DNA from: Isurus oxyrinchus
Lineage: Eukaryota
Direction: 5' to 3'
Assembly (NCBI GenBank): GCA_026770705.1
Contig: JANJGN010000002.1
Span: forward strand, 128,650,001 to 128,714,000
DNA: 64,000 bases
In this document: piece by piece, positions 3,068 through 60,089 of the stretch
How positions within the stretch are numbered: position 1 is the stretch's first letter
Layout of the letters: each line of letters opens with the position of its first letter
Notes under the pieces: model-generated
Told to the model about the DNA's origin: nothing
Database searches by the model: none
What the model saw: the letters and a program-made list of their open reading frames with translations, nothing else
Position numbers and translations under genes: made by a program

Positions 3068-4457
3068 GACAGATTTCTTCTTTGCACCCTGGTTTAAGGG
3101 CTTGGTCAGACAGAAGCAAAGATTCAGATGCAACCTGCCATAATTTCCCATCCATTAAGGTTGATAAGACCATGAGAGGTTTGCAGGTCGCATTTACAGC
3201 AGTGCTTCTCACCCCACAAAGCTCATAAATCCAGGCTGTGAAGAGAAAAATCTTCCCTGCTATGTCTGATTTCATGTATCAGACACGGCCCCTTTGTTAC
3301 ATATATAAACAGTCCTAACAAAGCAGCCCACTGCAGTGCCATCAACAACGGTAAAGTGTATTTATATTGTAACATTGAGGTGCAAGAGCTTAGGGCATTG
3401 ATGCAAATTAAAAGATTTTGAATATATTATAGATGATTTCGACCGCTTTGTGTCTGCATTTAGCTTACAACTTACTACCGGAGCTCAAGTTTGTAACGTA
3501 ATATATCAATACAACAAAATTTCCATTAAAAATTATTCAATTTATTTTTAGAATGGCACTTTTTGTGTTCAAAATATTTCTGTTTTTTAATCGGAGGCTG
3601 TGCTCTTCTGAGAAGCTAGTGTCTACAATTCCTGAAGACCCCAGAGTCATCTCTCTACATACAATCAACAATTATTAGGAATTCTTTCTTACACTTAAGG
3701 AGTGAGACTGGCTGTTCACAGGTATTGCTGCTTTTAGGCCCCTCACTTCTACTTCTTCCATTTCCAGGTGCTGGAGAATTACTGGCATCACAATATGAGA
3801 AAAAAGCATTTTTGGACCTTCTGAAAATAAATAATCCCTAACAATGCATGAGTGTTCTGGCCTACTCCGCTAGCAGGGCACCCGACATGGTCCCCTACCC
3901 TACTGGGAACAAGGAATCCCTATGCCAGTAGTTGCCCACTTCCCCATGCTCAGTGTGAGGTGGTCTAAGTGTGAGGGCAGGTATGCCCAGAAAGGTGCAA
4001 ATGAGCTCCACCAGAGGGGCAACTCTCCTTTTTCCCCAGCCAAGTGACAGCACGTACCAGAATACCTGACGTGTAGGCTGACAAGCACAGAGGCCTCACA
4101 CTAAGTGCTTGCAAGCCATAGGCTTGTCCTATTCACTTGCCTGCCCCAAGTACTTGCCAACAAGCATGCTTACTCAGCTAGTTGTATACAGAGCAAAATC
4201 TCGCTGACTATTCTTGGACTTCAATGCTCCTCCATGTATCCCTTAGGGAGTAGTGCAAAAATAATTGTAGAACGACAAAATAAGTTAGAGGGAGAATAGT
4301 TTTCTTCATGGGAGATGAACAATATTGCACATTGTATTTTAAATGCTTAACCTTATAATAGTTAAAAATCAAAAGCTGGTACAGCTCCTATCACATTTAA
4401 ATCATTGAAATCAGCCACAAAATGCTAAGCTTTTTCCATTGCTACCGTACCCCTAAT

Positions 4458-4840
4458 GTAGTATAATGGTTAGTAGTTGTGTTGCTGGACTAATAATCCA
4501 GAGGCCTGGACAAATGACCTGGAGACGTGAGTTTAAATCCCACTGCAGCAGCTGGAGAACTTAAATTCAATTAAATAAATCTGGAATAAAACACTAGTAT
4601 CTGTAATGGTAACCATGAAGCTACAGGATTCTTGTTCATGAATGCCTCAGGATTCTTGTTCATGAATGCCATTCTTATGTGGTCTGGCCTATATGTGACA
4701 ATGTGGTAAACTCTTAACTGATCTCTGAAATGGTGCAGCAAGCACTCAATTGTATTCAAGAAGGTGACTCACCATCATTTTCTCAAGGGCAATTGCTGAT
4801 GAGCGATATGAGCAGTGATGCTGACACCCTCATGAAAGGG
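4458..4840 (+). mobile_element. tRNA-derived SINE sharing its 3' tail with the LINE at 7278-8415
   Basis: gagtttaaatccc B-box, body aaattcaattaaataaatctgg, tail ctcaccatcattttctcaagggcaatt. Related copies at about 11515-11935 (+), 18030-18390 (-) and 33070-33435 (+). Confidence 0.7.
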
Positions 4841-4897
4841 AAAAACTCGCCACTATAGACAATTACAAAGTCACCGTTTCAAGTATTTAAAACAGAT

Positions 4898-6124
4898 ATA
4901 AAAACAAAAAACAAAAAACTGCGGATGCTGCAAATACAAAACAAAAACAGATTTACCTGGAAAAACTCAGCAGGTCAGGCAGCATCGGCGGAGAAGAAAA
5001 GAGTTGACGTTTCAAGTCCTCATGACCCTTCGACAGAACTAGGTGAATCCAAGGAAGGGGTGAAATATAAGCTGGTTTAAGGTGGTGGTGGTGGCGGGGG
5101 GGGGGGGGGGGGGGGAGAGAAGTGGAAGGGGGGGGTGTGGTTGTAGGCAAAAGCAGTGATAGAAGCAGATCATCAAAAGATGTCACAGACAGCAGGACAA
5201 AAGAACACATAGGTGTCGAAGTTGGTGATATTATCTAAACGAATGTGCTAATTAAGAATGGATGGCAGGGCACTCAAGGTATAGCTCTAGTGGGGGTGGG
5301 GGGGAGCATAAAAGATTTAAAAATATTTTAAAATAATGGAAATAGGTGGGAAAAAGAAAAATCTATATAATTTATTGGAAAAAACAAAAGGAAGGGGGAA
5401 GAAACAGAAAGGGGGGTTGGGGATGGAGGGGGGAGGTCAAGACCTAAAGTTGTTGAATTCAATATTCAGTCCGGAAGGCTGTAAAGTGCCTAGTGCTCTC
5501 TTGCCCACATGTCTGTCCTTGGCTTGCTGCATTGTTCCAGTGAAGCCCAATGCAAACTGGAGGAACAACACCTCATCTTCCGACTAGGCACTTTACAGCC
5601 TTCCGGACTGAATATTGAATTCAACAACTTTAGGTCTTGACCTCCCCCCTCCATCTCCACCCCCCCTTTCTGTTTCTTTCCCCCTTCCTTTTTTTTCCAA
5701 TAAATTATATAGATTTTTCTTTTTCCCACCTATTTCCGTTATTTTAAAATATTTTAAAATCTTTTATGGACCCCCCACCCCCACTAGAGCTATACCTTGA
5801 GTGCCCTGCCATCCATTCTTAATTAGCACATTCGTTTAGATAATATCACCAACTTCGACACCAATGTGTTCTTTTGTCCTGCTGTCTGTGACATCTTTTG
5901 ATGATCTGCTTCTATCACTGCTTTTGCCCACAACCACACCACCCCCCTCCACTTCTCTCCCCCCACCCCCCACCACCACCACCACCTTAAACCAGCTTAT
6001 ATTTCAACCCTCCCTGGGATTCACTAAGTTCTGTCGAAGGGTCATGAGGACTCGAAACGTCAACTCTTTTCTTCTCCGCTGATGCTGCCAGACCTGCTGA
6101 GTTTTTCCAGGTAATTCTGTTTTT
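4898..6124. mobile_element. Penelope-like element 3' ends in inverted arrangement, one insertion with 15-bp TSD
   Basis: Minus arm 4898-5494 and plus arm 5494-6124 both match the 3' end of the PLE at 36538-38175. GTATTTAAAACAGAT occurs at 4883-4897 and 6125-6139. Confidence 0.9.
6027..6065 (+). ncRNA. Minimal type I hammerhead ribozyme motif (variant core CUGUCGA) in PLE terminal repeat
   Basis: AGTT-CTGTCGA-A-GGGTC-ATGAG-GACTC-GAAACGTC-AACT: stem I AGTT/AACT, stem II GGGTC/GACTC, palindromic ACGT in place of stem III, GUC site. Mirror copy on the - strand at 5002-5040. Confidence 0.7.
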
Positions 6125-6325
6125 GTATTTAAAACAGATGTTCAGCCATTCACACATTGTTAATGTGCAATTCACTGTATACTTAATTGCCTCCATCTGA
6201 TGTTGGGTTGTGCAGCTCAAACCTGACTGCAATAACAAGCGTGGTCAGTGAGTAAATAACACCTCAGGTTCATTTATCTTGTGTAGAATATCCCCTCTAA
6301 ATGGCGTGGGGTTACATGCTATACT

Positions 6326-6556
6326 AGCTTGGCCTAAATAGCCAAGTGGTTATGGTACTGGGCTTGTAACCCCAAGATCAAGAGTTCAAATCTCACAATG
6401 GCAAACAATGTAACTTCATCTGAAACAGATGGAAACGGGTTTGTACTCGAAAGAGTTACATCAAGAGTTCAAATCTCACAATGGCAAACTATGAAACAAT
6501 GTAACTTCATCTGTATAGGAACAGATGGAAACGTATTTGTACTCAAAAGAGTTACA
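6326..6556 (+). mobile_element. Dimeric tRNA-Thr(TGT)-derived SINE
   Basis: A-box TAGCCAAGTGG, anticodon loop CTTGTAA, B-box GAGTTCAAATC; the B-box + tail unit is present twice; direct repeat GTTACATGCTATACT at 6311-6325 and 6551-6565. Confidence 0.8.
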
Positions 6557-11008: not shown

Positions 11009-11127
11009 AAAAGCAAAACACTGCAGAAGTTGGAAATCTGAAATAAAAACAGAAAATGCTGGAAAAACTAAGCAGGTCTGGCAGCATGTCTAGACCTGCT
11101 GAGTTCTTCCAGCATTTTCTGCTTTTA
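11009..11127. mobile_element. Miniature palindrome of PLE tail with 16-bp TSD
   Basis: cagaaaatgctggaaaaactaagcaggtct is inverted against agacctgctgagttcttccagcattttctg; TATCAATGT(A/C)TACAAT at 10993-11008 and 11128-11143. Confidence 0.7.
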
Positions 11128-13186
11128 TATCAATGTCTACAATGCTATTTCACAAGTTTGGATTGCATATCATTTTGTTTTTTTGATATGCAGGAAGGAT
11201 ATAAACGATGTTATTGAATACTGAGTTTTAATTTTTTTTTCAAATTGCTATTTATGGTAAACCTTTGTGTGAATGCATGTAGTTTACATGTAACCTGATA
11301 AAAAACACACACACACACAATGCACTTGGAGATGGGTTGACTTGATTGCCCTGTTGACATTTTGATTTTGTGGCGATCAGACCTTTATTTCTATCCTTAC
11401 CTTTGATACCTGGACCCTTCAATGAGGTTGAAAGTTTATCTACTAAAATAGAGCCATAGAATCATAGAGTTTGCAGCACAGAAACAGGCCCTTAGGCCCA
11501 TCGTAAATACATGTAGGGTGCAGTAGCATATGGGTTACGTTAATGGCATGGAATTCTAGAGGCCTGGACTAATGATCCAGGACATGGGTCCAAATCCCGC
11601 CAAGGCAGCTGGAGGAATTTAAATTCAGTTAATTAGATAAAACTGCAGTAAGAAGCTACAATCAGTAGTGGTGACCATGAAGCTATTAGATTGTCTGGTT
11701 CACTAATGCCCTTTTGTGAAATAAGAAATTGGTTGTCCTTGCCCGATCTGGCCAATATGCGACTCCAGACCCAGAGTGATGTGATTGACTCTGAACTACA
11801 GCCGAAATGGCCTAGCAAGCTGGTCACCGTTGTTTTTAAGAAGGAGGCTTACCACCTCGTTTTCAAGGGCAGTCACGGATGGTTAATAAAATGCTGGCTT
11901 TGTTAGCCACACCCACAATCCATGAATGAATTAAAAAATATATAGACTGGCAATTTCATATGGAACGAAGTGGTGATATTCGGGTTCCTTATGAAGAGAA
12001 GCTGAAATACGTTTTGTAAATCAGTGCATAGAATTTGGGTCAAAATCCTGGAACTCCCTCCCTAACAGCACTGTAGGTGTACATACACCGCATGGACTGC
12101 AGCGGTTCAAGAAGGCAGCTCGCCACCACCTTTTCATAGGCAACTAGGGATAGGTAATAAATGCTGGCCCAGCCAGTGAAGCCCACATCCCATGAATGAA
12201 TAAAGAAAATTGTAGATCAATGTACAAGGCTTATTTAAATTTAATTTTTTTAAAAGTCGAATATGTTAATCAGTTTGAGAAACAATAACTGTTCAAGATG
12301 AGAAATGGCTAATTTGACATCTCCATTGCTCTTTCAATCCATGTATAGAACTGACAGGCATCATTTTATCACCTATCTACCTTAATGTGCTCATATCCCT
12401 CTGCCGTTGATTTGGGAAACAGACAGTAGCCTTCATGAATATATTGAATGGGACAACAACGACGGCTTTTTCTGGCAGGTTATTTTATAATTGCAAGTGA
12501 AATTGATGCATTTTTATTTATTTTATGCTCTTTGAAAATGTTTACCTAACTTATACCTCAAAATGTAGAATGAAAAAGCACTCTGACCTTTACAGTACTG
12601 AATGAACTTTAAATTTGTTCTGTAATTGTAGCAGTGTTGTAATCCCATTAAATCAAGTATTGAATTACAGCATTGTACCAGATCAAACAGGTTCCATTAA
12701 TTATGCATGTTATTGTGTATCAAAACATCAGTTCAGTTATAGTTCTCTCACTTCTCAGTCAGAAGGTTTTAGATTTATACCTCATTAAGTCTTGAATATA
12801 TAAACGCAAATGACATTCCAGTGCAGAATGGAGGTGGTGACTTTCACTTGAGGCAATAAAACTAAGTTCACTGCTCAGTTAAATGTAAAATGTCCCATGC
12901 CATGAGTATAAGAGGAGCAGGGAGATACTTAATGTGCATCCAGTCTGCTCATCATGTCTGACTTGATACATCAAGTATTACCATGTATCTTAGACATTAA
13001 TCTTGCAGAATGGGGATGTAATGGCAAATGATCTTCAATATAGGTAAGTATAAGGTAGTACATTTTGCAGGAAGAATAAGGAGAGATTCCTTGGAAAATA
13101 AGCATCGAAATGGGGTAGAGGGATGTGGAGGTACAGATACACAACATAGACACAGGTTAAAAAGATCATTAACAAAAATGGCAAAC

Positions 13187-24040: not shown

Positions 24041-26523
24041 TTTTACTTACAAATACTAGCTAATCTCAGATGGTATTGCACAGGGTTAGTCTGACATCTG
24101 AGAGCATGGTTATCATCTTTCGTGTGGCCTCTTGTGCCAGTTGAAATGTTGCTCCTTGGGGATTGCAATTCCATAAGAATATGGTATAAGTATTTCAGCT
24201 GACTAATTCTGCAGAGGGCACAGAGTATACTCTGTACCTCTGCCGGATTTGTCAGCTGCAGCTTGAAATCCCAGGGTTGGTTGAAGGATCCTTTCCCACT
24301 GGGTTCTTAGTCTCTCTCAGTATTATTTTCCACAGCAACATTATCGAAAACTAGAACGGCTACCCTTCTTTCCTCGCGCTTGTTTTCTTCCTCTTGCCTC
24401 TCCACCTCAGAACTTACTTACTGCTCAATGATTTTGGTTTTGTACGTTTCTCATATTGTCAATGTTAGTCATATGACTGCATATTCAACTGGGTCAGAAA
24501 TCAAAGTGGTGCTAGGATTTAATTGGATAGCCTGATTGGTTGAAATTGCAGCATTTGAATTAGCTGCTTTTCTCCGGAATTTTTCCTGATCGTATTTTAA
24601 CATAAGCATTTCAGCTCATGAGAAAAAACTTGATTCTTTTTCATGTTGCAGGCATTTTTAATGTGCCATCATAAGCATTTAATGTGCAATATCTTACACA
24701 CGAGACTTTTAATGAATGCAGATTTTTGCATCAGTCATAAGGAATCATCTCCATTCAAAGATGAGTTTTCCCTAATAGAACCACATTTATATCAGGTTGT
24801 TGGCTAGAAATGTAACTACTATGATCAATCAAATTTGATGTGATATTCTTCAAATGTAGTACCTAATATAGAACGCAATGCAGAACAACTACACCCATTG
24901 CCTTTGGTGATGTGGTTTAGCTGCAAATTTTATGCAAATGCTGACAAATGTTCAGAGGAAAATGAATTATAGCAGACCAGCTTTAGCATTACTATGCAAT
25001 CACCAAAGTTGCAATGGCAAATGTTTGGTTCAGGGCCATTCATTGCAGTCTAGACAGGAAAGATCAGTCTAATAGCCTTTCTTCCAATATGGGGGGTCAA
25101 AGCTTCTGAAAACTAAATTTTCCTTTTATTGTTTGAAGACAAGGATATGAAGTGCTCTTACTGCAGCATTCTCATTACTAAATTTTATACAGTGAAATTA
25201 ATTTGAAAACCTTGGAGGGAGGACTCATAGGGAGGTGGGAAACCAAGTAGGTTTGGAATAAAAGCCCAGAAAATTGAAATGCATCCCATTGTTTCTCAGG
25301 GTTGTGTTAGAAAGCTAATTTGTATGTGCTCTACATCTTCATTTGAAAAATGACTAACAGGCAACTTTATATTTGTTGATAGATTGAGCAAAAATAATTT
25401 TAAAAAGTAATAAAAATAAGGCATGTTATAAATAAGTTATGCTTGAGAGCCTGAATGGCCTACTTCTGCCCCTATTTCATATGTTTGTATGTGCATTTCC
25501 AGTTCTTGTGATGAGTATAACACCGAATATTACAGAGCAACAGTTTGGAAAAAAAAAGTTTTAAAATTAAAATACTGATGGTATTGTAGCATGGCATTGA
25601 AAAAATATATATTTAATGCTGCCCTAATGTTGACATTTTAAACTGTCAGTGGCTACTGGATTTTGATGTAAGCTGAGAGATCTATGCCATTCTTCCTATA
25701 TCACTTCTGATAATTCAGTCATTTTCTGTGGTGAAAATTGAATGATCTAACAACTTAAATTAAGTAATGTGAATAACACAAGGTAATGATTTTATGCTAA
25801 ATATTTTCAAATTATCTAGTAATTTGACTTCAGTAACTGTGAATTACCATCAAAATTATTTTGAACATTTCATTGATATTATCCAACAGAAAATATTTGA
25901 CAAGTAGAATATTTTATAAGAACAGAAACTGTGAGAAGTACATAAATCCATGATAAAGTTTGCAGACTCCAAGCATTACATGATCACTTGGTTTTTCAGA
26001 TGATGTGCTGTGGATTTCCAACAGTTTTGTTTGTTTCTTCAAATTTTCAGCATTTTCAGTTTCATTTCCACGTTTGAAGAATGGGGCCCAAAACAAAGGA
26101 AAGAACAATGTAGAGAGAAGTTCATCACTGAGAGTACCACCGTTACTCTGAAAATTAAATCCATTGTGTTCCTAACCTTCCTGATCCACCCGTCACTCAA
26201 ACCCCCATCCCAGTTGATCAGAGTTGTGTCGCATCTACCACCTCATTGGCAGTTCTCAGCGAAATATTTGAGACCAAGTGGAAAGGATTGGATTGACAGT
26301 CCAATCAGACCATACAAAGCAGATGGACCAACACAGGCCAACACCAGATAGACGTTTTAAAATAAGTGTAAATATTTGTAATTGTTTGCAATTTTTCTCT
26401 GTGTAACTAGATTGTTCTAAACAAAGGATTACATTGAGCTTTAAAGCATTGACTTCTATGTTTTGATATTAAGCATGATTGTGTATCCTCCATCTATATT
26501 AACTGATTTATTTTTTGTTACAG

Positions 26524-27330
26524 ACTATAGTCAGAGGAAACAGAGCATGGAAAGACACCTCTTTGAATGGCCTTTTGGAAGAATTCAATGATATTTCTGT
26601 AACTCGCTCAAACTCTCTACGTAGGGAGAGTCCTCCTGCTCCACCACAGAAAAATTCCAACCATAGCCTGTGCAGTCCTGAAGAAAATGGTTACAGCCAT
26701 TATTATCTCAGACACTCATATGATATAGAACCTTCAAAAGATTTTACAGCAGGGAAATGCAAAGAACAGAGCAATCCTGCTGAAGACTGGGACAGACATC
26801 TCAAATATAACAAAGCTGCTCAACAAAATGGCCAGGATTCTAACAGAGTTCGGTCTGTAGAAACATATTACTTAGAAGACAACGTACACAAGGCAGATTT
26901 TGGTAGATTGCCACCAGACTACTATACATATTTGGTGTCAAAAATTAGGCCAACAGACCACATTGTGGCAAGCAGGGACTCCCCAAGAGTTCACAGGTCA
27001 CCACCAGTTCACAGGAGACACCTACAAAGTACGCCTTCTAGAAATGTTCAAAGAGAAATTCCTAGGGAAAAATTGGAATACAAAGAGAAAGACTGGGGCC
27101 CAGAACCCCAAAAGGAAGACTTGGACAAACGACCAAAGTCATCCTATGTCATACAGACAAGTCCTCAACCAACTATGAGACAGAGATCAAAATCAGGATC
27201 TGGACTGCAGGAACCAAGTGTGCCATATGCTGCCAGTGCATTTAAGTCAACACATCCCACTGGACATGCATATAGTTCATACACATATCCAAGGCTGTCC
27301 GAGTCGACGGCTGTATCATGCATTCCGAAG
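26524..27330 (+). CDS. PAK5: PAK5/PAK7 internal coding exon (post-CRIB regulatory linker), 269 codons, phase 0/0
   Basis: Acceptor ttttttgttacag| and donor AAG|gtaaat. Translation TIVRGN...ISVTRSNSLRRESPP...RPKSSY..QTSPQPTMRQRSKSGSGLQEP...YTYPRLSE...CIPK matches vertebrate PAK5 as I recall it. Confidence 0.95.
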
Positions 27331-28249
27331 GTAAATGCCACTTTCATATTCAAACCTTCAACACTTGTATGCACATCTGCATTCCATCACTGTGTGACAC
27401 TGTGTGGTTTGATTTCGTTGGATCTCCATCGTTGCTAGTTGCAATATAACACCCCCCCCCTTTTTATTAGCTAATTCAAATGTAATTGTACTCTTTGAAT
27501 TTTAAAACAAATGCTTTCTTCTAAAAGCTCTCAATGGGTTTGAAGAGTCAACAAGAAAAGCACGGTTATGAACTTTTTTTTATGAAACCTTGATAAGTAG
27601 GGAAATTATTATATATTACAAATATAATTAAGTGAAGAGGTAGAGTACCTATCAAATCTGTGAACAATTGTCCCTCCTACTGATTATTCTGAAGATACTT
27701 CATTTATGTCATGGAGATCAATATTGGCATTATATAGTTAGTGTGCTGTACATTCCACTAATCGTTCTTGAGTTTTAGCAAATCACAGAACCATTTTATA
27801 TTTCTATTCTGACTTTGCACATTCATCAATCAATGCTGCTGTAAACTGCATACAAGGAAATGCATGAGTGGCAACAGATCCTCCAGTTTTTCCTGCATCT
27901 TTCAGAAGTGCATTCCTAAATAGAATCAGATTGAGAACTGATGTTGTAGGAAATTATGGAGCAGAAGCCCTATACTGCCTCTCTATTGTAATGCATGTAA
28001 CACTGTTTAGCTTTTTTAAAAGATATTTTGACTGGTGTCCCCATAAATTTTTTTTGCTGGGAATAAAGATCAATCAGTTGTTCCCAGCTGTGTCACCTGA
28101 GATCCATTTGTACTGCAGTTAAGAGGATGGATTGGCAGCTCTCATCTCGGCCTCCAGCAGGACCGCTCTGAAATTGAAACCTCGCTGTAATGACACTCTT
28201 TGGCAATACACCTCCCTGCATGTTGCCCATTTCTCCTTTTTACTTCAAA

Positions 28250-34600: not shown

Positions 34601-36537
34601 TTATAATTTTAAGGAGCATTGGCATTAAATAATATCATTAATTGGGTAAAGTTTGTTAGATTGTAATTGTGTAGTACTTAGAGTGGACAAAGAACAAACT
34701 GCAGATAAGTGTTGACTTATAAAACAAATGATCAAATAATATTGAGGAGACATAATGCATGTATATTCACATAGTGTGATCAGAACATGTGAACAATATA
34801 GCTTTGAACAGAGGCTTTGACTTTAACCCTCTGGATTGGAATAACAGTAAAATTCAGTGCAAGTTACTTAGTAATTTCGCACATTAAATTTCAATATTGG
34901 TGTTCTAACCTTTGCAACTGAGGCCGGTGAAACTTTTGGGGCAGGATTTTTATTCCCTTATGGGAGTGAGTACACAAGCAGCCAGGCATGAAAATTCTTG
35001 CAGCCATCCAGTGTTCCACTTTGTCAACACTGTCCTGCCCAAGGGTCATTTTGCCAGAGGTCTTTGCTGGTTGGCAGCGCTACCCATCTGTGAGCAGTGG
35101 GTAGCCAATTAAGGGGATTAAATGGCCACTTCAGAACTGTTGTCATAGACTGGCATTTTCTAGGTGGCCTACAGGACCCCCACTCTCCTCCCCCGAGGCA
35201 TCAGGTACTATGCCAGATTCCTGGAGGTGGCCTCCCAGTAGCAGACCAGGAAGCCAGTGCTCCAAGCAGGCTTTGAAGCCTTCCCCGCCTGCCTGACCAC
35301 AGGTTTCCCCTCCACAATGGTGGCCTGGCTGCTGAGGGCATTTTCTCTGTTTCCAGCACCAAAACTTAGCAGGTGAGGATTGGTGACTTTGGACTCTATA
35401 AATTTTAAAAGTGGTACATGACAGACTGCTGTGCCTCGCTCTTAGACAAAAATGCTGGGCCATAATTTGATGTAGCAAGGCAACTCAAAGTTTTTGCCCT
35501 ACATTAGACTTGCCCTTGCATGTTTAGGCCTTTGCATTTTTTGCCTGACAAGTTTCTGAAAGTCCGAGTTGGTAATGATGCAATGAGAAGGAAACTGGGA
35601 CCCAAGTAAACTGTGTTTTTCATTAATCAAATTGAAGGTTTATGAAGTTAACAGCGTAAGGACTGAGAAGGAAGGGTAAGTTAGAGTGGGTGAATTCAAT
35701 GTCAAAGCAGATATGGAAAATGAAAAAAAGGGGGGAAGGGAAGAGTAATAAAAATGCTTTAAACGTTAAATCCCTTGTGACTGTGTTAATCCAGCTTCTC
35801 TCGTTTTCTCAAATTTTATAAAATCTCCAACAACAATTGAAACCTGAAGGAATGAGACTCCATAGCTGTAATAGTTAATTTTCAGTGCTAAAGAGGTTGA
35901 TTGACAGTACGAACACTTTCACATCTTTAAAAGGGTGCTCAAAATGAAAACGATGAGACAACTTTTTGCGGTGAGTCTTGTTCATATATAGCTTGCAAAT
36001 ACAGGAACTTAAGGCCATTCAATGCATCTAAGTGGGGAACCAGAGGATGGATCCCATTGTTGTGAAGCTAATGTCAGAATGGTACAATTCAGATTGCAAC
36101 TTCTGAATTTTTGGATTTATCTGCACCTCTTTCACTCACCTGAAATAGCTATACCATTTGTGAATAAATAAAAATGAGTGCATCTAAACTCACCATTGTT
36201 TTGACATCAGGTTATTGTCCATTAGGTTGTAATGGTGAACTCCCCCCAAGATGGCATTTATATGCAAAGGCACACTTTTTATTTAGCTGGAGGACAGTTC
36301 TGATGGTGGTTTTGCTTATATTGCCTCACTGAAAGGAGGAAGCACTACAGTGGGGGAAGATACTCAGGATGTAAGGAGAATTATTAAAACGATGGGTGGA
36401 ATTTAATGCGCTCTCCCATGGTGAGTTTGGTGATGGGGGGGTGGCATTTAATCAGGCAGAAGAGTGGGGACCCTGCCGCCTTCCCACCTCCACCCCAATT
36501 AAGTCTGTGATGGAAAGACCCATGAGAGGCAATTAAT

Positions 36538-38175
36538 CTGTCTCTTTATGGGGTATGTGGAATATTCCTTGTTACAGTCCTACTCCGGCCCCCTTCCACA
36601 ACTCTTTCTCCGGTACATCGATGATTACTTCGGTGCCGCTTCATGCTCTCGTCGGGACTTGGAAAAATTTATTAATTTTGCTTCCAATCTCCACCCCTCC
36701 ATCATTTTCACGTGGTCCATCTCTGACACTTCCCTTCCCTTCCTTGACCTCTCTGTCTCAATCTCTGGTGATAGACTGTCCACCAATATCCATTACAAAC
36801 CCACCGACTCCCACAGCTACCTCGACTACAGCTCCTCACACCCCGCTTCCTGTAAGGACTCCATCCCATTCACCCAGTTCCTTCGCCTCCGTCGCATCTG
36901 ATGATGCTACCTTCAAAAACAGTTCCTCTGACATGTCCTCCTTCTTCCTTAACCGAGGTTTTCCACCCACGGTCGTTGACAGGGCCCTCAACCGTGTCTG
37001 GCACATCTCCCGCGCATCCGCCCTCACGCCTTCTCCTCCCTCCCAGAAACATGATAGGGTCCCCCTTGTCCTCACTTATCACCCCACCAGCCTCCGCATT
37101 CAAAGGATCATCCTCCGCCATTTCCGCCAACTCCAGCATGATGCCACCACCGAACACATCTTCCCTTCACCCCCCTTATCGGCATTCCGTAGGGATCGCT
37201 CCCTCCGGGACACCCTGGTCCACTCCTCCATCACCCCCTACTCCTCAACCCCCTCCTATGGCATCACCCCATGCCCACGAAAAAAGATGTAACACCTGCC
37301 CCTTCACTTCCTCTCTCCTCACCGTCCAAGGGCCCAAACACTCCTTTCAAGTGAAGCAGCATTTCACTTGCATTTCCCCCAACTTAGTTTACTGCATTCG
37401 TTGCTCCCAATGTGGTCTCCTCTACATTGGAGAGACCAAACGTAAACTGGGCGACCGCTTTGCAGAACACCTGCGGTCTGTCTGCAAGAATGACCCAAAC
37501 CTCCCTGTCGCTTGCCATTTTAACACTCCACCCTGCTCTCTTGCCCACATGTCTGTCCTTGGCTTGCTGCATTGTTCCATTGAAGCCCAACGCAAACTGG
37601 AGGAACAACACCTCATCTTCCGACTAGGCACCTTACAGCCTTCCGGACTGAATATTGAATTCAACAACTTTAGGTCGTGAGCTCCCTCCCCCATCCCCAC
37701 CCCCTTTCTGTTTCCCCCTTCCCCTTTTTTTCCAATAAATTATAAAGATTTTCCTTTTCCCACCTATTTCCATTATATAAAAAAAATAAAGAAAACCCCA
37801 CTAGAGCTATACCTTGAGTGCCCTACCATCCATTCTTAATTAGCACATTCGTTTAGATAATATCACCAACTTTAGCTTTAACACCTATGTGTTCTATTGT
37901 ACCATTGTTGTTGACATCTTTTGATGATCTGCTTCTATCACTGCTTGTTTGTCCACACAACCACATCCCCCCCCCCCAACCCCAACCTCTCTCTCTCTCT
38001 CTATCTCTCCGCCCCCCACACACACACCTTAAACCAGCTTATATTTCAACTCTTTCTTGGACTCGACGTCAAGTTCTGTCGAAGGGTCATGAGGACTCGA
38101 AACGTCAACTCTTTTCTTCTCCGTTGATGCTGCCGGACCTGCTGAGTTTTTCCAGGTAATTCTGTTTTGGTTTGT
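36538..38175 (+). mobile_element. 5'-truncated Penelope-like retroelement (RT C-terminus + GIY-YIG endonuclease + 3' repeat), probably Neptune-type
   Basis: FLRYIDDYF, LPFLDL, HYKPTDSHSYLDYSSSHP, Cys linker CPRKxCNTC, NLVYCIRCSQCGLLYIGET..LGDRFAEH; two frameshifts (about 36900 and 37285); stop at 37680; TSD AGAGGCAATTAAT at 36525-36537 and 38176-38188. Confidence 0.93.
38072..38110 (+). ncRNA. Minimal hammerhead ribozyme motif (variant core CUGUCGA)
   Basis: Identical to 6027-6065. Confidence 0.7.
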
Positions 38176-39015
38176 AGAGGCAATTAATGCCCACTTAAGG
38201 GCCTTATTCCAGTGCTGCTGGTATAAAGCCAATGGCACGTGGGGAGCTCTACAAGTAAGCCCTTTTGGGGTTTGCTTCTGTACTTCTGTGGGACTTCCTC
38301 ATTCAAAGGTACTCTGCCTGATTGAGGAACTGGCATCGGGAAGGGGGGCTGCCTGCTGGGAGCCAATCCCCTCCCCCATGACCTTCCTCACGTCATAACT
38401 CATCTGTGGCCTGGGATCCAGCAACGATACCTGGCCTTGTGTTGTCGTATCGGCAGCTGCCACCACCTCCTCAGTGATGCTGCCTTCAATAGAGCTACTG
38501 GCTTCTGGTAGGCAGCTCATGGTAGGCTGGACTTCCGCCCCCAGGATTCTTGACCCCAGGGAAGGCTGGCCACTGTCCAATTAAGGGCCTTCCCTAAAAG
38601 AGGCACTGTGAGGCTCTTGCCATCTCTCCAGCCAGCAGGTGAGACTCCCATCGCCTCCATTGAATACCCCCCAAAGTTTAATTAGGCTTTTCCCATACTT
38701 AACAGGGGACAATCTTTCAACAGCTTCTGGATATCTTAAAAACTAAGCATGCAGGAAATCATGATTATAGTGCATACATCCCTAGAAACACACTGGGTCG
38801 AATATTTTTCTTAAAAGAAAGAGCTTACATTTATATAGAACTTTTCACCTTCTCAGAATTGATGAATTATTTTTTGAAGTACAGACACTGTTATGCAGCT
38901 AAAAGTGATGGCCAGTTTCAGAATAGCAAGGTCCCACAAACAGCAATGAAATGAATGATCTGATCATTTTTTTTCAAGTTGGCTCTGATATAAATGCCTG
39001 CCACAACAACAAGAA

Positions 39016-40204
39016 CACTTATCACCCCACCAGCCTCCGCATTCAAAGGATCATCCTCCGCCATTTCCGCCAACTCCAGCATGATGCCACCACCAAACAC
39101 ATCTTCCCTTCACCCCCCTTATCGGCATTCCGTAGGGATCGCTCCCTCCGGGACACCCTGGTCCACTCCTCCATCACCCCCTACTCCTCAACCCCCTCCT
39201 ATGGCACCACCCCATGCCCACGCAAAAGATGTAACACCTGCCCCTTCACTTCCTCTCTCCTCACCGTCCAAGGGCCCAAACATTCCTTTCAAGTGAAGCA
39301 GCATTTCACTTGCATTTCCCCCAACTTAGTCTACTGCATTCGTTGCTCCCAATGTGGTCTCCTCTACATTGGAGAGACCAAACGTAAACTGGGCGACCGC
39401 TTTGCAGAACACCTGTGGTCTGTCTGCAAGAATGACCCAAACCTCCCTGTCGCTTGCCATTTTAACACTCCACCCTGTTCTCTTGCCCACATGTCTGTCC
39501 TTGGCTTGCTGCATTGTTCCAGTGAAGCCCAACGCAAACTGGAGGAACAACACCTCATCTTCCGACTAGGCACCTTACAGCCTTCCGGTCTGAATATTGA
39601 GTTCAACAACTTTAGGTCGTGAGCTCCCTCCCCCATCCCCACCCCCTTTCTGTTTCCCCCTTTTTCCTTTTTTTTTCCCTATAAATTATATAGATTTTTC
39701 TTTTCCCACCTATTTCCATTATTTTTAAATATTTTAAAATCTTTTATGCTCCCCCCACTCCCACTAGAGCTGTACCTTGAGTGTCCTACCATCCATTCTT
39801 AATTAGCACATTCGTTTAGATAATATCACCAACTTTAACTTTAACACCTATGTGTTCTTTTGTACCATTGTCGCTGACATCTTTTGATGATCTGCTTCTA
39901 TCACTGCTTGTTTGTCTACACAACCACCTCTCTCTCTCTCTATCTCTCCACCCCCCACACACACACCTTAAACCAGCTTATATTTCAACTCTTTCTTGGA
40001 CTCGAAATCAAGTTCTGTCGAAGGGTCAACTCTTTTCTTCTCCGCCGATGCTGCCAGACCTGCTGAGTTTTTCCAGGTAATTCTGTTTTTGTTTTGGATT
40101 TCCAGCATCCGCAGTTTTTTTTGTTTTTATCTCTGTGTTTAATTGACTGCCACTGCTCTTCAAGAAATGCCTACCTCCTTGAAGAAGTTCTGTTCCTCTC
40201 TGCG
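39016..40204 (+). mobile_element. Second 5'-truncated Penelope-like copy with open GIY-YIG frame, nested in a Deu SINE
   Basis: Near-identical to 37073-38170; uninterrupted frame to the stop at 39622; ACAAGAA at 39009-39015 and 40205-40211; host SINE resumes on both sides. Confidence 0.9.
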
Positions 40205-42587
40205 ACAAGAAAACTTTCTGCTCATCTTCGAATAGTGCAATGTGATGTTTATGTGCTTCTCAACAAGCAGATGGCGCCTCAGTTTAACCATTCTGTCAGT
40301 ACTGCAGCGAAGTGTCATGTTCATGTAGGTTATGTTCTCAAGTCCTCTCTGACTCGGGGGCTGAATGTTATGACTAAGCCATGCTGACAAAGTGTTTATA
40401 TTGTCATCATGTCAGATGACTGACAGGTTTAGGTGATAGTAAAAAGAATTGGGGCGATAAGATAATATGGATGTTACTTCCTTGAATTGGTGGAGCAACA
40501 TTAAAAGAGAGAAGGTTTAACCATCACAAATATCTTTAAAAAGCTCTAACCCACCGAGTCAAATATATGCATGTAAAATCAGATTCCCCTTTTACTTTCC
40601 AAAATAAAATGTAATTTTTTTACTGCCCAAGTGAAGGCACATTTTCTTGCTTATCTGAGGCCTTGATCTTTTGAACATTGTACAACTTGCCTTGCATTAT
40701 CAGAACTGTTACATATTGTAAAATATTTGGACTTGAACATGTTCATGAGTGGGGCATGTATGATTTAAATACATCTAAAGGGGATTTAACCTCTCACATC
40801 TTCATATCAGAATTCGCACCTGTCACAGATTTGCAAACCAGCAGATCATCTCAATTAATTGTTGCTATAAGTAATGTGACATTATTAATATTGCAGCTTC
40901 TGCACGAGTGCCAAGGGCCGATATAAACTTAAGCATATTCAAACCTTTCCTTGTGTGCAATACTGTTGATTTGACAGGACCTTAATACATCTGTCAGCGG
41001 CACGACTTGTCGCAGTATTGTAGGATGGTGAATACTGTGGCATTTCTGCCAATTTTCCTAATTGGACTTGATAAGTTCATAATTTTCCCTGCATTATCAG
41101 GTCAGTTTTTACATATTGTAAAATACTTGGACTGGAACATGCCCAAGATTGGGGTGTATGTGATTTTAAAACACCATAGTGTGCATCTGTTTGACCACAA
41201 AACATGAATCAATTATCAGCTGAATCAAGGCTGCCACACTCATGCAGTCCTGAGGGAGTGCTGCACTGTTGGAGGTACCATGTTTTGGATGAGGCTTTAA
41301 ACCAAGGCCCTGTCCGCCTTCTAAGGTGGGTGTGAAAGATTCCATGGCACTATTTTAAAGAGCAAGGGAGATACCCTGGTTGTCCTAGCCAATATTTAAC
41401 CCTCAATCAACATTTAAAAAAAAAAACAGGTTATCTGGGCATTATCACAATGCTGCTTTTAGGTGCTTACTGTGTACAAATTGGCAGCCATGTTTCCTTT
41501 AGAACAATACCTTTCAAAAGTACTTCATTGGCTGTAAAGTGATTTGGGACGTCCAGTGGTGGTGAAAGTCTTAATTGCAGTGGCCATGAGCAGCTCTACA
41601 TGCTTTATATGGGCTTAGACTAAACTGTGCAATGTGTTGTTTTGTTGCTTTTACAGTTGACTGCCACAAACCCTTTTTAAATATAGAGCAGTAAACTATG
41701 GCCAGCTACGCCTGCAGTGATTCCACTCTTAGAACTCATTCATTCTGGTTTTAAGATGCAAATTATATCCATGAGGAACACAAACCACTGTGTTACGCAT
41801 ATCAGTTCTTTAAGCTGAGACATGTGGAAAAGCTTAACATTTGTTCAAGCTCAGTGGATGGATTTTGTTTTAATAAAGCAGGATGAGAATACTTTCATGT
41901 TACCCCTAATTGTAATCTCACTCTGTGACCACTGGGAGCAAAATAACATGGTCTGCCTGTAATTTTTATTATTATTCACATACACAAGCAGTCTCAGCTG
42001 TAGAGCATCTATCAGTGACTAGGTTTATTATCAAGTATAGATCCTCATCCATGGCAGTCCTCAATACAGACATAAATCAAAAGCTGAGTGCAGGTACAGC
42101 CTCTGCCACTTACAATGTCCACGGTTATTACAGACAGCTGCCTATACAGAGCGAGTAGCACAAACTATTTGCCAGTATCATAGGTGTCACTTATAACATA
42201 CTGAACTTGCTGGTTATTTTGGCAGTGGTGACTCTAACAGTGGTTATCATTGATAAGAAATCAGACAAGGTGACTTAAGATTTAGCTGCTAATTAGCTTC
42301 ATGTTCTCTCAGACTTTGTTGCAGTCACTTTCAATTTTTAACTGATTATTTCCTAACTAATGGGAGGGAGGGGGAATATTTTAAACATTTTTGTTCTTCA
42401 AGAAGAAAATTATGACCAAATTTGGAAGTTTGTGATCACTTAGTAATCTGTGTTGACTGGGTGAGTTTTATGAATGACCCTCAACAGTTTATAATTTTAT
42501 TTATCCAGTTTTCTCTTTCCTCCTTCCTTTTCACCATGAAACATTCTATTCAAATTAGCACCCCTAAGCAGGATAGGCTTTAGGTTT

Positions 42588-44119
42588 AAGCTAAAAGCAA
42601 ATTACTGTGGATGCTGGAAATCTGAAAAATACCTGGAAAAACTCAGCAGGTTTGACAGCATCTATGGAGAGAGACAGAGTTAACGTTCCGAATCCATATG
42701 ACTCTTCTAAAGAGAAGTAAAAATGTGGTGAAATATATACGGTTTAAGGGGGGTTGGGACAGGTGAAGCTGGATAGAAGGATAGGTGGAGGCAAAGGAGA
42801 GATTGCAAAAGATGTCATAAACAAAAGGTCGAAGGGGTGTTAATGGTGATGATACTGGCTAAAGGAGGTGCTAATGGTCACATTAAGAGTAGAAAGCAGG
42901 ATGAGCAAGTTGGGGGGAGGGGTCAGTATGGGAGAAAAGATCGAAATAGGCTAAGGTAGGGATAAAACAACGAGTAGAAATAAATTTAAATAATAATAGA
43001 AGTAGGTGGGGAAAAATATATATATATATATAAAAAAAATTTAAAAATTAATATTTGAAAAAAGGGATCAAAAAGGGGTGAGGATGGAGGAGAGAGTTCA
43101 TGATGTGAAGTTGTTGAACTCAATGTTAAGTCCGGAAGGCTGTAAAATGCCTAATTGGAAGATGAGGTGCTGTTCCTCTCAGTTTGCATTGAGCTTCACT
43201 GGAACATTGCAGCAGGCCAAGGACGGACATGTGGGCATGAAAGCAGGGTGATGTGTTGAAATGGCAAGTGACAGGGATGTCTGGATTATGTTTGCAGACA
43301 GACCGAAGGTATTCCACAAAGTGGATACCCAGTGTACGTTTGGTGTCTCCAATGTAAAGGAGATCACATTGGGAGCAGTGAATGCTGTAGATCAAATCGA
43401 GGGAAGTGCAACTTGAAAGGAGTCCTGGGACGGTGAGGGGGTCAGGGGGGTGGCTAGTAAAGGGGCAGGTGTTGCACCGTCTGTGGTTGCATGGGAAGGT
43501 GCCGTGGGAGGGGGTTGAGGTGTTGGGTGTGATGTAGTGGACCGGGGTGTCCCGGAGGGAATGGTCCCTACTGAATGCCGATAGGGCGGTGAAGGGAAGA
43601 TGTGTTTGGTGGTGGCATCATGCTGGAAATGGCGGAGGATAATCCTTTGAATGTAGAATTAGGTACTTTACAGCCTTCTGGACTTAATATTGAGTTCAAC
43701 AACTTCGGATCATGAACTTCCTCCATCCTCACCCCTTTTTGATCCCCCTTTTTTCAAATATTTATTTGTAATTTTTAGATATGTATTTTTCCCCACCTAT
43801 TTCTATTATTATTATTTTTAAAATTTACTTCCACTCATTATTTTATCCCAGCCTTTTAACCTATTTCGATATTTTCTCCCACACCGTCCCTTCCCCCACC
43901 CCATCCCATTAGGGCCATCCGTCACTTGCTCATCCTGCTTTCTACTCTTAACTTCACCACTAGCACCTCCATTAGCCAGTATGACCACCACCAACATCCC
44001 TTTGACCTTTTGTTTATAACATCCTTTGGAATCTCCTTTGCCTCCACCTATCACTGGCCTTCTATCCAGCTCCATCTTTCCCACCACCACCCCTTAAAAA
44101 GCGATTTTTGTTTTTGTTT
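42588..44119. mobile_element. Older Penelope-like subfamily in inverted arrangement with 14-bp TSD
   Basis: Minus arm to about 43660 encodes IYSIHCSQCDLLYIGDTKR; plus arm about 43660-44119 repeats the 3' end; TAGGCTTTAGGTTT at 42574-42587 and 44120-44133. Confidence 0.85.
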
Positions 44120-44179
44120 TAGGCTTTAGGTTTCCCTACTTTGGCCTGGGCACAACTGTAAGTGGAGTCCCAGGAAATG

Positions 44180-45090
44180 ATCTGCTTTTATCTACCCAAC
44201 CCTATCTCATCATAATTTTAAAAACCAAAAGCAAACCAGCTTGTGTTCTGATGAAGGGTCGTACGGATTCGAAACGTCAACTATAACCCTCTCTGCAGCT
44301 GCTGTCAGACCTGCTGAGTTTTTCCAGGTATTTTTGTTTTTGTTCCAGCTTGTAATCTCTTCAGTTCCAACAAAAGTAGCCTCAAATTGCCAAGCTTCTC
44401 TTTTTACTTATATTTTCTCATGCCAGACAGCATTTTAATGAATCTGTTGTAATGTCTGGTGAATTAAACAACTTTCCTATACCATTTGGTCTAATAACTG
44501 CATACAGTACTCTTAACTGTAGGCTTAATTACAAAGGTTTTGTATAGGTTCACCTTGAATTTCGAGTTTTATATTCTATACTACTTGCCATAAAAATTAA
44601 TTTTCTGTTTGCCGTTTTTTTTATGAGCTGTCATTTATGGTGTTTTCTTAATGTCTTGCGAACCTAAACATCTCTGCACTCATATTACCCAACCTTCCTC
44701 CATTTAAAGTATAATCCTTATCAATATCCCCTCTGTAGCTTCTTTTGGTCCACACAATTATTTATTCCTATTTTAGTATTATCTGAGAATTTGGACACCA
44801 CTCCGTCTAGTCCTAAATCTAACTCTGATGTACATGGTGATTAGAAGTAATTCCAGAACACAACACTTCCAACAATTCTGATAAACTGTCTTAACTCCTA
44901 TTTTTTTTTTCACTAATTGTGACTGTGTTAATCGAGTTTGCCTCCTGTTCTTTAACTTCATACTCCATGACTATCTTCAATAATCTCCTATGGTAACTTG
45001 TCAAAGGCCTTTTAAAAGCTGAATGTAAATTTTTTTTAGGCTTGATAAGTATCAGACCAAAATGATTAACATTGAGTGCATAGCAGCCAA
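44180..45090 (-). mobile_element. Highly degraded CR1 LINE hosting the 100-bp insert
   Basis: Minus-strand remnants of KAFDK (aaggcctttgacaag) and EYCMQ (gagtactgtatgcag). Confidence 0.55.
44245..44344 (+). mobile_element. 100-bp PLE insert: canonical-core hammerhead plus tail, 9-bp TSD
   Basis: GTT-CTGATGA-A-GGGTC-GTACG-GATTC-GAAACGTC-AAC followed by the PLE tail; CCAGCTTGT at 44236-44244 and 44345-44353. Confidence 0.8.
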
Positions 45091-58440: not shown

Positions 58441-58947
<507 letters not shown>

Positions 58948-60089
58948 TGAAATAATTTTCAAAATTTGATTGAGCCAGTGAGATTGATTAAAATTATTTC
59001 TCTTTGGGATTATCTGACTGGATTTTTCCCCATCAAGACATAGGTGCTAATGCAAATTGAAAGTGTTATAGTACTTTGTTGTTTCACTCTTTCCCTTATG
59101 GTTCATGATTAATTACTAAATGTTTCGAGCTCTCAGAACCAGAAGCCACCCTGTTTTTATTTTTATGTGACTATTAAATTGCCAAAGCTATGACAATGGG
59201 TTCTGAGGTTAGGATTGTGCAATTCTTAGACTTAATTAAAATATTCTATATTGTCATTCAATCGGTAATTGAACTGACAGAACCAAAATTATTTCAAGTG
59301 CTATAGGTGCCCTTTTGTGTTAATGTAGAAAGCTTAAAATCTACCAGCACAGAACTGGTAAGATTAAAAATGGAAGAACTGCAAGTGGGGTAAATCTTGA
59401 GAAAAAGCTGAGAGTGCACAGTAGATCTGTCAGCTTCTGGAAACAGCAAAAATATTAAAACGTTAGACAAACCTGTGCCCTCAATGTTAACTTTTCTCCC
59501 TCTCTTGTCAGTTAACATACTTTCAGTGTGTTTGCAGCACTTAAATGTTCAAGCAAAAAATAATTTTTTCTGGACGTCTATCCACCAAGGTAACCCTCCA
59601 CCACTCTGACCTTCCTCCTTGGTCCCTATTCTGTGGCCTTCTCAGTGGACATTGTTAATATTGTCTTCCAAGGTTTAACTTAGATAAAGGGATTTTTTTT
59701 AAAGAACAGGGTTAGGCTCAGTGTTTCAAGGTAAATTTCCACCCCTGCATCATCTTGCCCCACCTTATCTCAGCAAATACTTTAAACTTATATCCCCACC
59801 CACACCCTTTGGTCCTTTGCACTGGACTTTCATACATATCACCATTCTTTCAGCCCACCATTGGTGACAGAACCTTCAGTTCCATTTTCTGAAATTTTGA
59901 CCCTACCTGTCTCCACTTCGCCGTGCACCTTCAATGACCTTCTGAAAGCCCATCACTTCAATCTAGCCTCAGCCGCTTCACCTTCTAATCTCTCCCTGCA
60001 TGGCTCAGTGTCCACTTCCTTATCTTTTTTTGTGTGTGTGCGATCACCTTGGGACATTTTTTTTAACCTAAAGAAATGAAAGCATTAAA

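Follow-up and report, generated by a model that had tools for sequence, protein, structure and literature searches.

A hammerhead-like motif with U at core position 6 in the pseudo-LTR of an abundant Penelope-like element

Why Penelope-like elements (PLEs) keep hammerheads is treated as an open question in two studies of these elements (PMC8557442, PMC4209133). A 64,000-nt stretch of genomic DNA, referred to here as the window, raises this question in a particular form: its young PLE copies carry a hammerhead-like motif in which core position 6, an A in the canonical core, is U. Is this a functional natural variant of the hammerhead core, or has a family of retroelements amplified with a weakened ribozyme? 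Both answers were offered by the original prediction, which was made from the window alone.

The motif at 6027-6065 on the forward strand reads AGTT CTGTCGA A GGGTC ATGAG GACTC GAAA CG T C AACT. Its layout is that of a minimal type I hammerhead with U replacing A6: stem I is AGTT/AACT, the core CTGTCGA lies at 6031-6037 (C3 being 6031) and is followed by an extra A, stem II is GGGTC/GACTC, and GAAA and a palindromic ACGT complete the motif, with a predicted cut after 6061. When we compared it with the hammerhead core, we found C3, U4, G5, G8, A9, G12, A13, A14, A15.1, U16.1 and H17 all in place, and U where A6 is expected. A 4-bp stem I and a 5-bp stem II with a G10.1-C11.1 pair are present, while helix III is possible only as an ACGU/ACGU dimer. 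As in the definition of PLE minimal hammerheads (PMC4209133), the motif lies in the pseudo-LTR (pLTR), has an extra nucleotide after A9 and is palindromic at 15.2-16.2. The predicted probability of stem II is 0.98 in the 39-mer and 0.08 in a 143-nt context. Because the A6 feature fails and cleavage is only predicted, we do not file the motif as a proven ribozyme. No Rfam hammerhead match was obtained in the window at E<=10, which is uninformative about U6, since the A6 relative at 44248 was missed too.

CTGTCGA had been noted in all four young copies of the window, and it is indeed there in each, at 6031(+), 5036(-), 38076(+) and 40015(+) (Table 1). The stems had been described as intact in the three complete copies; this holds at 6027 and 38072, but the copy at 5002-5040 has GACTT, so that its G10.1-C11.1 pair is a G-U wobble (CpG decay). 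The relative at 44248(+) has the canonical CTGATGA, as had been stated, and a stem I of only 3 bp. The 18 nt missing from the copy at 40011-40031(+) lay between two GTC microhomologies, and this form, with only 7 exact copies genome-wide, is sporadic.

Table 1. Coordinates in the window of the hammerhead-like motifs and of the insertions that carry them
Feature	Position	Strand	Details
Minimal type I hammerhead-like motif, U6 core	6027..6065	+	Core at 6031(+), predicted cut after 6061
U6 motif on inverted arm, C11.1 decayed to T	5002..5040	-	Core at 5036(-)
Complete U6 hammerhead-like motif	38072..38110	+	Core at 38076(+), predicted cut after 38106
U6 core with 18-nt deletion, loop II to C17	40011..40031	+	Core at 40015(+)
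Older relative, canonical CTGATGA at 44248(+)	44244..44282	+	Right arm of decayed head-to-head insertion ~42600-44343
Single head-to-head PLE insertion	4898..6124	.	EN end, 3' UTR, hammerhead, tail
15-bp target-site duplication of the 4898-6124 insertion	left 4883..4897, right 6125-6139	+	
5'-truncated PLE copy	36538..38175	+	RT part, linker, GIY-YIG, 3' UTR, tail
5'-truncated PLE copy	39016..40210	+	Continues into ORF start

Throughout, signed positions are numbered from C3, which places the predicted cut site at +31 and the first base of stem I at -4. In the head-to-head insertion at 4898-6124, the inverted arm (~4908-5494) ends at the +130 tail site and the direct arm (5494-6124) near +94. 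Target-site duplications were sought for four window insertions and were clear for two, this one (15 bp) and the copy at 36538-38175 (13 bp, at 36525-36537 and 38176-38188), with none for the other two, including that at 39016-40210. An old palindromic remnant at 11017-11133 consists of two PLE tails without a hammerhead and is the source of a spurious mir-750 Rfam match. The window also contains weak tRNA-like matches at the heads of repeated elements (4457-4551 and 6332-6403), which are probably tRNA-derived SINEs, and probable exons of a kinase gene at 26503-27438 and 58441-58950 (Pkinase match, E=8e-6), which we take to be of the PAK type.

What kind of element carries the motif is indicated by a tandem array elsewhere in the genome (L061, G000:C1:460500-470400). 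Its units of 3,353 and 3,340 nt are 99.5% identical, and all three of its hammerheads have U6. The second unit has an open frame of 926 codons, with the first Met of the long ORF at +170, and the first unit has a frameshift. The 926-aa protein matches RVT_1 above the cut-off (E=7e-8) and GIY-YIG weakly, below the Pfam cut-off (E=9e-4). It has the motifs RYIDD, DKG and VY..YIG, a CX4CXXC linker (CPRKRCNTC at 792), and a CCHH in EN (a C835/C838-type CXXC, H857 and H873). A CX2-5CXXC linker and CCHH mark the Neptune and Nematis clades (PMC8557442). With a single ORF that joins RT to a C-terminal GIY-YIG, tandem or partial-tandem and inverted insertions, and a 30-40-bp tail, the host is, judged by its sequence, an autonomous Penelope-like element of the RT + GIY-YIG kind, whose linker is of the Neptune/Nematis type. 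Exact ORF-start junctions number 3,792 genome-wide. Between old-U6 and young-U6 copies, fixed differences in the ORF fall at 13/339, 7/342 and 28/325 sites at codon positions 1, 2 and 3, and 20/182 sites differ in the 3' UTR. Because of this codon-position pattern, we infer that purifying selection acted on the element protein after A6U had arisen, in a lineage that already had U6.

Several further features of these elements were observed. Another U6 tandem array, of at least 3 units at 3,325-nt spacing, lies at G000:C1:12159804-12166488. In the young family, a new ATG in loop II opens an 18-codon upstream ORF (window 6044-6100 and L061:5077-5133) that is absent in older subfamilies. Immediately upstream of stem I, the youngest subfamily has GGACTCGAAATC, which is like the 3' half of its own hammerhead (L061:5045-5063); no other part of the lineage has changed as fast as this region (8/39 differences).

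We asked how common U6 is across the 4.98 Gb of the genome searched. A 35-nt pattern that held the context around the core exact gave 73,787 matches, against 0 for the reversed pattern used as a control. CTGTCGA accounts for 57,585 of these, C or G at position 6 for 1,556, and A6 for 112 (0.15%); by subtraction, 14,534 have other U6 cores, mostly with TT at positions 6 and 7 among the matches listed. This tabulation of core letters thus finds the canonical core to be rare, and not the majority form among genomic copies. In an unbiased sample of 120 evenly placed 10-kb stretches (1.2 Mb in total), a relaxed minimal-hammerhead descriptor returned 38 matches, 28 with U6 and 9 with A6, against 1 in the reversed control. 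U6 also appears to be common to at least two species labels, because in run contigs of organisms A and B the sole T>A difference tallied, among the matches listed, falls outside the core. A separate repeat (L100:7393(+), L174 and L081) with CTGATGA ... GAAAC, a long spacer and a stem II of only 3 bp is possibly another hammerhead-bearing family.

The change had been placed in the active master of the youngest family. To order the core changes, we constructed a tree from 68 of 222 distinct copies, those with at least 300 nt of upstream homology, leaving out the hammerhead columns and rooting on an AA copy. This flank-only tree formed a ladder, CUGAAGA > CUGAUGA > CUGUUGA > CUGUCGA, and the order was unchanged when the tree was enlarged to 81 copies by 13 of 30 C/G6 loci. 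The first 100 of 6,852 older-type copies comprised 54 TT, 23 AT, 19 AA, 4 other and 0 TC. Since the ladder puts CUGUUGA before CUGUCGA, A6U predates the youngest family; read from the flanks, it is a single step from CUGAUGA to CUGUUGA, with C7 arising later. CpG decay does explain CUGUUGA in part of the young copies, but was rejected as its origin in the older subfamily, where there is 0 TC among those first 100 copies and two other CpGs are intact. The A6 copies of the exact 35-nt context that were placed in the tree are scattered tips inside the U6 part; with only 112 such copies, a young A6 master of this context was rejected as well. Tip lengths in the 81-copy tree are 0.05-0.12 for the A6 subfamilies versus 0-0.005 for the youngest U6 clade. 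That an active master carried the change is therefore borne out, by the tally of 112/73,787, by the scatter of the treed A6 copies and by the U6 of the intact ORF in the 99.5%-identical array, while its date has to be moved back to an older subfamily. Successive subfamilies with intact ORFs have U6 as a fixed letter.

Position 6 did not stay U throughout. One upstream variant is shared by 1,400 copies; the first 100 of them comprise 39 with CTGCTGA, 57 TT, 3 TC and 1 TG, and all 8 copies with a further upstream variant have CTGCTGA. These counts indicate that a side branch was amplified from a C6 master, position 6 having changed again.

Ends directly after GUC had been proposed as a signature of cleavage. 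The unbiased sample contained 85 tail-anchored copies, whose ends lie at ~+95 to +105 or ~+130, 3' of the cut site. The same sample gave 57 5' boundaries within -100..+45, of which 39 lie at -9..+12 and 0 at +26..+36, and the pattern holds for A6-type (21/27 and 0) and U6-type (18/30 and 0) boundaries. Over all loci analysed, among which overlapping loci may count twice, 0/217 boundaries lie at +26..+36 and the mode is -4; likewise, 0/30 copies retrieved by their ORF start begin at +31. Genome-wide, 276 copies of the 33-nt tail are without both bases before the cut site. Inspection of 30 of them revealed 9 internal changes, 19 head-to-head junctions (one of them classed as "other" by the script) and 2 plain flanks, so that 21/30 begin at the cut site; several of the head-to-head junctions there show microhomology. 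Cut-site starts amount to ~0.2-0.4% of ~91,000 tail copies (22 in 1.2 Mb, scaled, with chance matches allowed for), near background. Inserted copies thus show no sign of origin from RNA cut at GUC, and the proposed signature is absent from them. No +31 starts are seen in the A6 subfamilies either, and the absence therefore means that cleavage is not needed for insertion, rather than that U6 cuts less. It may also be that cleaved RNA is not copied at all, and no boundary would be expected from a circle that had been cut and religated. As for other sources of the 5' edge, there is no support for splicing to the AG that precedes stem I, as happens in D. virilis: solo copies often include the AG, and no common upstream exon was seen by eye. 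Cutting at -5 by an upstream GACTCGAAATC half-site was rejected, given that older subfamilies without the half-site have the same edge.

Is the rest of the motif constrained? Taking the 57,585 CTGTCGA copies as a reference, we counted the extra copies gained on freeing given sites. In the youngest family, freeing 8 core sites added 2,776 copies (0.60% per site), 8 stem II sites added 3,254 (0.71% per site) and 7 free sites added 9,402 (2.3% per site). The free-site excess counts as one or two events, because it is seemingly mostly one amplified loop variant present in both arms of inverted pairs. Where the core is concerned, per-position letter counts in old-U6 and young-U6 copies are circular, its letters having served to define the groups. 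After A6U, the lineage underwent ~8 changes, at N7, 10.2 (to a G-U wobble), four sites in loop II, H17 (U to C) and position 6. None fell in the 12 invariant bases (P ~0.05), and no stem was broken, all changes being fold-compatible or at position 6 (P ~2e-4, a rough and post hoc value); limited to the five trunk changes, the core test shows no significance (P 0.16). These patterns moderately suggest constraint on RNA shape, and do not demonstrate catalysis. The stem II deletion form, with only 7 copies, was rejected as an amplified ribozyme-less subfamily. Folding predicts that A6 can pair with GUC in an inactive UGACG/CGUCA helix, which U6 would break (-11.3 kcal/mol for A6C7, -7.3 kcal/mol for U6C7). 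The predicted double-hammerhead fold is at -10.1 versus -18.2 for the cofold minimum, and A6 versions are likewise far above the minimum.

The explanation that we favor, with a probability of about 0.58, is that A6U became fixed in the pLTR hammerhead of an autonomous PLE lineage at the stage of an older subfamily, and that amplification went on, with self-cleavage likely weaker and likely not required for insertion. Between the two answers offered by the original prediction, the copies without cut-site ends and the further change of position 6 to C in an amplified side branch favor the weakened ribozyme. By analogy, A6U likely weakens cleavage: single and double mutants of the CUGA box had low activity and no rescue in a type III hammerhead (PMC9901934), and the natural A6C is slow in Mg2+ (PMC3088659), though it retains good activity in Mn2+ (PMC7151607). 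In the Anolis PLE, hammerhead mutants do not affect insertion in vitro, no RNA-seq reads were reported to end at the cut site, and the hammerhead cleaves only with protein (PMC11167929); Naiads, which are without hammerheads, proliferate (PMC8557442).

Such a lineage could work as follows. The RNA would start at about -4 to -8 from the upstream pLTR, as estimated from DNA copies alone, and the hammerhead would be its first folded element. With uncut RNA as template, the element protein would prime reverse transcription at an internal site, the tail, using one DNA end or both. Copying from the first tail to the RNA 5' end would give 100-135-nt solo copies and head-to-head pairs, and copying from the second tail would give long 5'-truncated copies. 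Since a cut in the first hammerhead would take off the capped 5' end of the RNA, and one in the second its tail, weak cleavage would be harmless or useful, and a slow ribozyme would cost the element little. The stems and the other core bases may be constrained as a structural leader or for residual protein-assisted cleavage.

Alternatively, U6 could be a functional natural core variant that cleaves usefully when dimerised and protein-bound, or with Mn2+, and that regulates or circularises the RNA, a possibility that we hold only tentatively. The low per-site rates in the core and stem II (0.60% and 0.71%, versus 2.3% at free sites), an H17 that stayed within H (U to C), the seamless tandem arrays, and the predicted breaking by U6 of the inactive helix that A6 allows (-11.3 versus -7.3 kcal/mol) would all fit it, as would the protein dependence of the Anolis hammerhead (PMC11167929) and the activity of A6C in Mn2+ (PMC7151607). 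Against this stand the lack of a cut-site boundary in copies, amplified masters that tolerated U and C at position 6, the low activity of CUGA-box mutants in the type III hammerhead (PMC9901934), and a double-hammerhead fold far above the cofold minimum, as is also true of A6 versions. Slightly more doubtful is the idea that the element protein took over the role of A6, freeing position 6 to become U and then C, with the core still selected for protein-assisted cleavage at the transcript 5' end. If true, this would be a natural RNP switch built on a hammerhead, which disposes of surplus RNA or produces circles and which all CUGANGA-based searches missed.

Less probable again is a dead relic, whose remaining core bases would have survived by chance, little time having passed, or because a promoter or protein-binding sequence overlaps them. 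The 3' UTR has diverged at only 20/182 sites since old-U6, 12 unchanged sites are not improbable (P ~0.16 with five trunk changes), the motif lies directly behind the inferred RNA start, and Penelope promoters are internal (PMC2377424); however, the changes avoid stems and core in favor of loop II, N7 and H17, and the stem II deletion form never amplified (7 copies). Finally, such hammerheads have been proposed to work as dimers (PMC4209133), and A6 subfamilies are present in the genome; it is nevertheless very unlikely that a partner with canonical A6 mobilises U6 copies, or cuts them in trans, as mere passengers, because U6 elements encode an intact ORF of their own that is under selection, the branches of A6 subfamilies are older and longer (tips of 0.05-0.12 versus 0-0.005) and same-context A6 copies are scattered and make up 0.15%.

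Descriptors built on CUGANGA overlook the commonest hammerhead-like motif in this genome. The genome also holds a natural allelic series within one lineage (A6A7, A6U7, U6U7, C6U7 and U6C7) together with an intact young ORF, which makes the roles of cleavage, of the fold alone, or of neither directly testable. That short copies have a fixed 5' edge is evidence, at the level of the genome, for insertion from uncut RNA, in line with the in vitro result from a different clade. We found no report of a natural U6 hammerhead core in the literature searched, which is weak evidence of absence.

The element resembles Neptune and Nematis EN+ PLEs in its RT with C-terminal GIY-YIG, DKG, CX2-5CXXC linker and CCHH, and in its tandem and inverted insertions and 30-40-bp tail (PMC8557442); it differs in its non-canonical core, and the likeness is one of motifs and insertion form. 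In it, as in the Poseidon element PAc of Anolis (PMC11167929), reverse transcription would start at two internal sites that define a tail 3' of the hammerhead, with uncut RNA as template and extension from both DNA strands. In contrast, PAc has a canonical-type core that cleaves with protein and an ORF that starts in stem II (PMC11167929), whereas here the long ORF has its first Met at +170 and the linker of the protein is CX4CXXC. The motif shares with metazoan PLE minimal hammerheads (Cervera and de la Pena 2014, PMC4209133) its pLTR position, the 4-bp stem I, the extra nucleotide between 9 and 10.1, G10.1-C11.1, a palindromic 15.2-16.2 without loop 3, and tens of thousands of mostly solo copies. 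It departs from them at position 6, which is U here (C in the side branch) and A in every representative of Fig. S3 of that study compared here; the sole core variant given in the available text of that study is a U3-A8 covariation (PMC4209133). A parallel in the core is the A6C hammerhead of phage Bcep176, a natural position-6 substitution with the rest of the core intact (PMC3088659, PMC7151607). The phage hammerhead is a single sequence with C at this position and has been assayed (kobs <0.1 per min, Mn2+ preferred), whereas here U, known from sequence alone, is fixed in a large and long-amplifying eukaryotic retroelement lineage.
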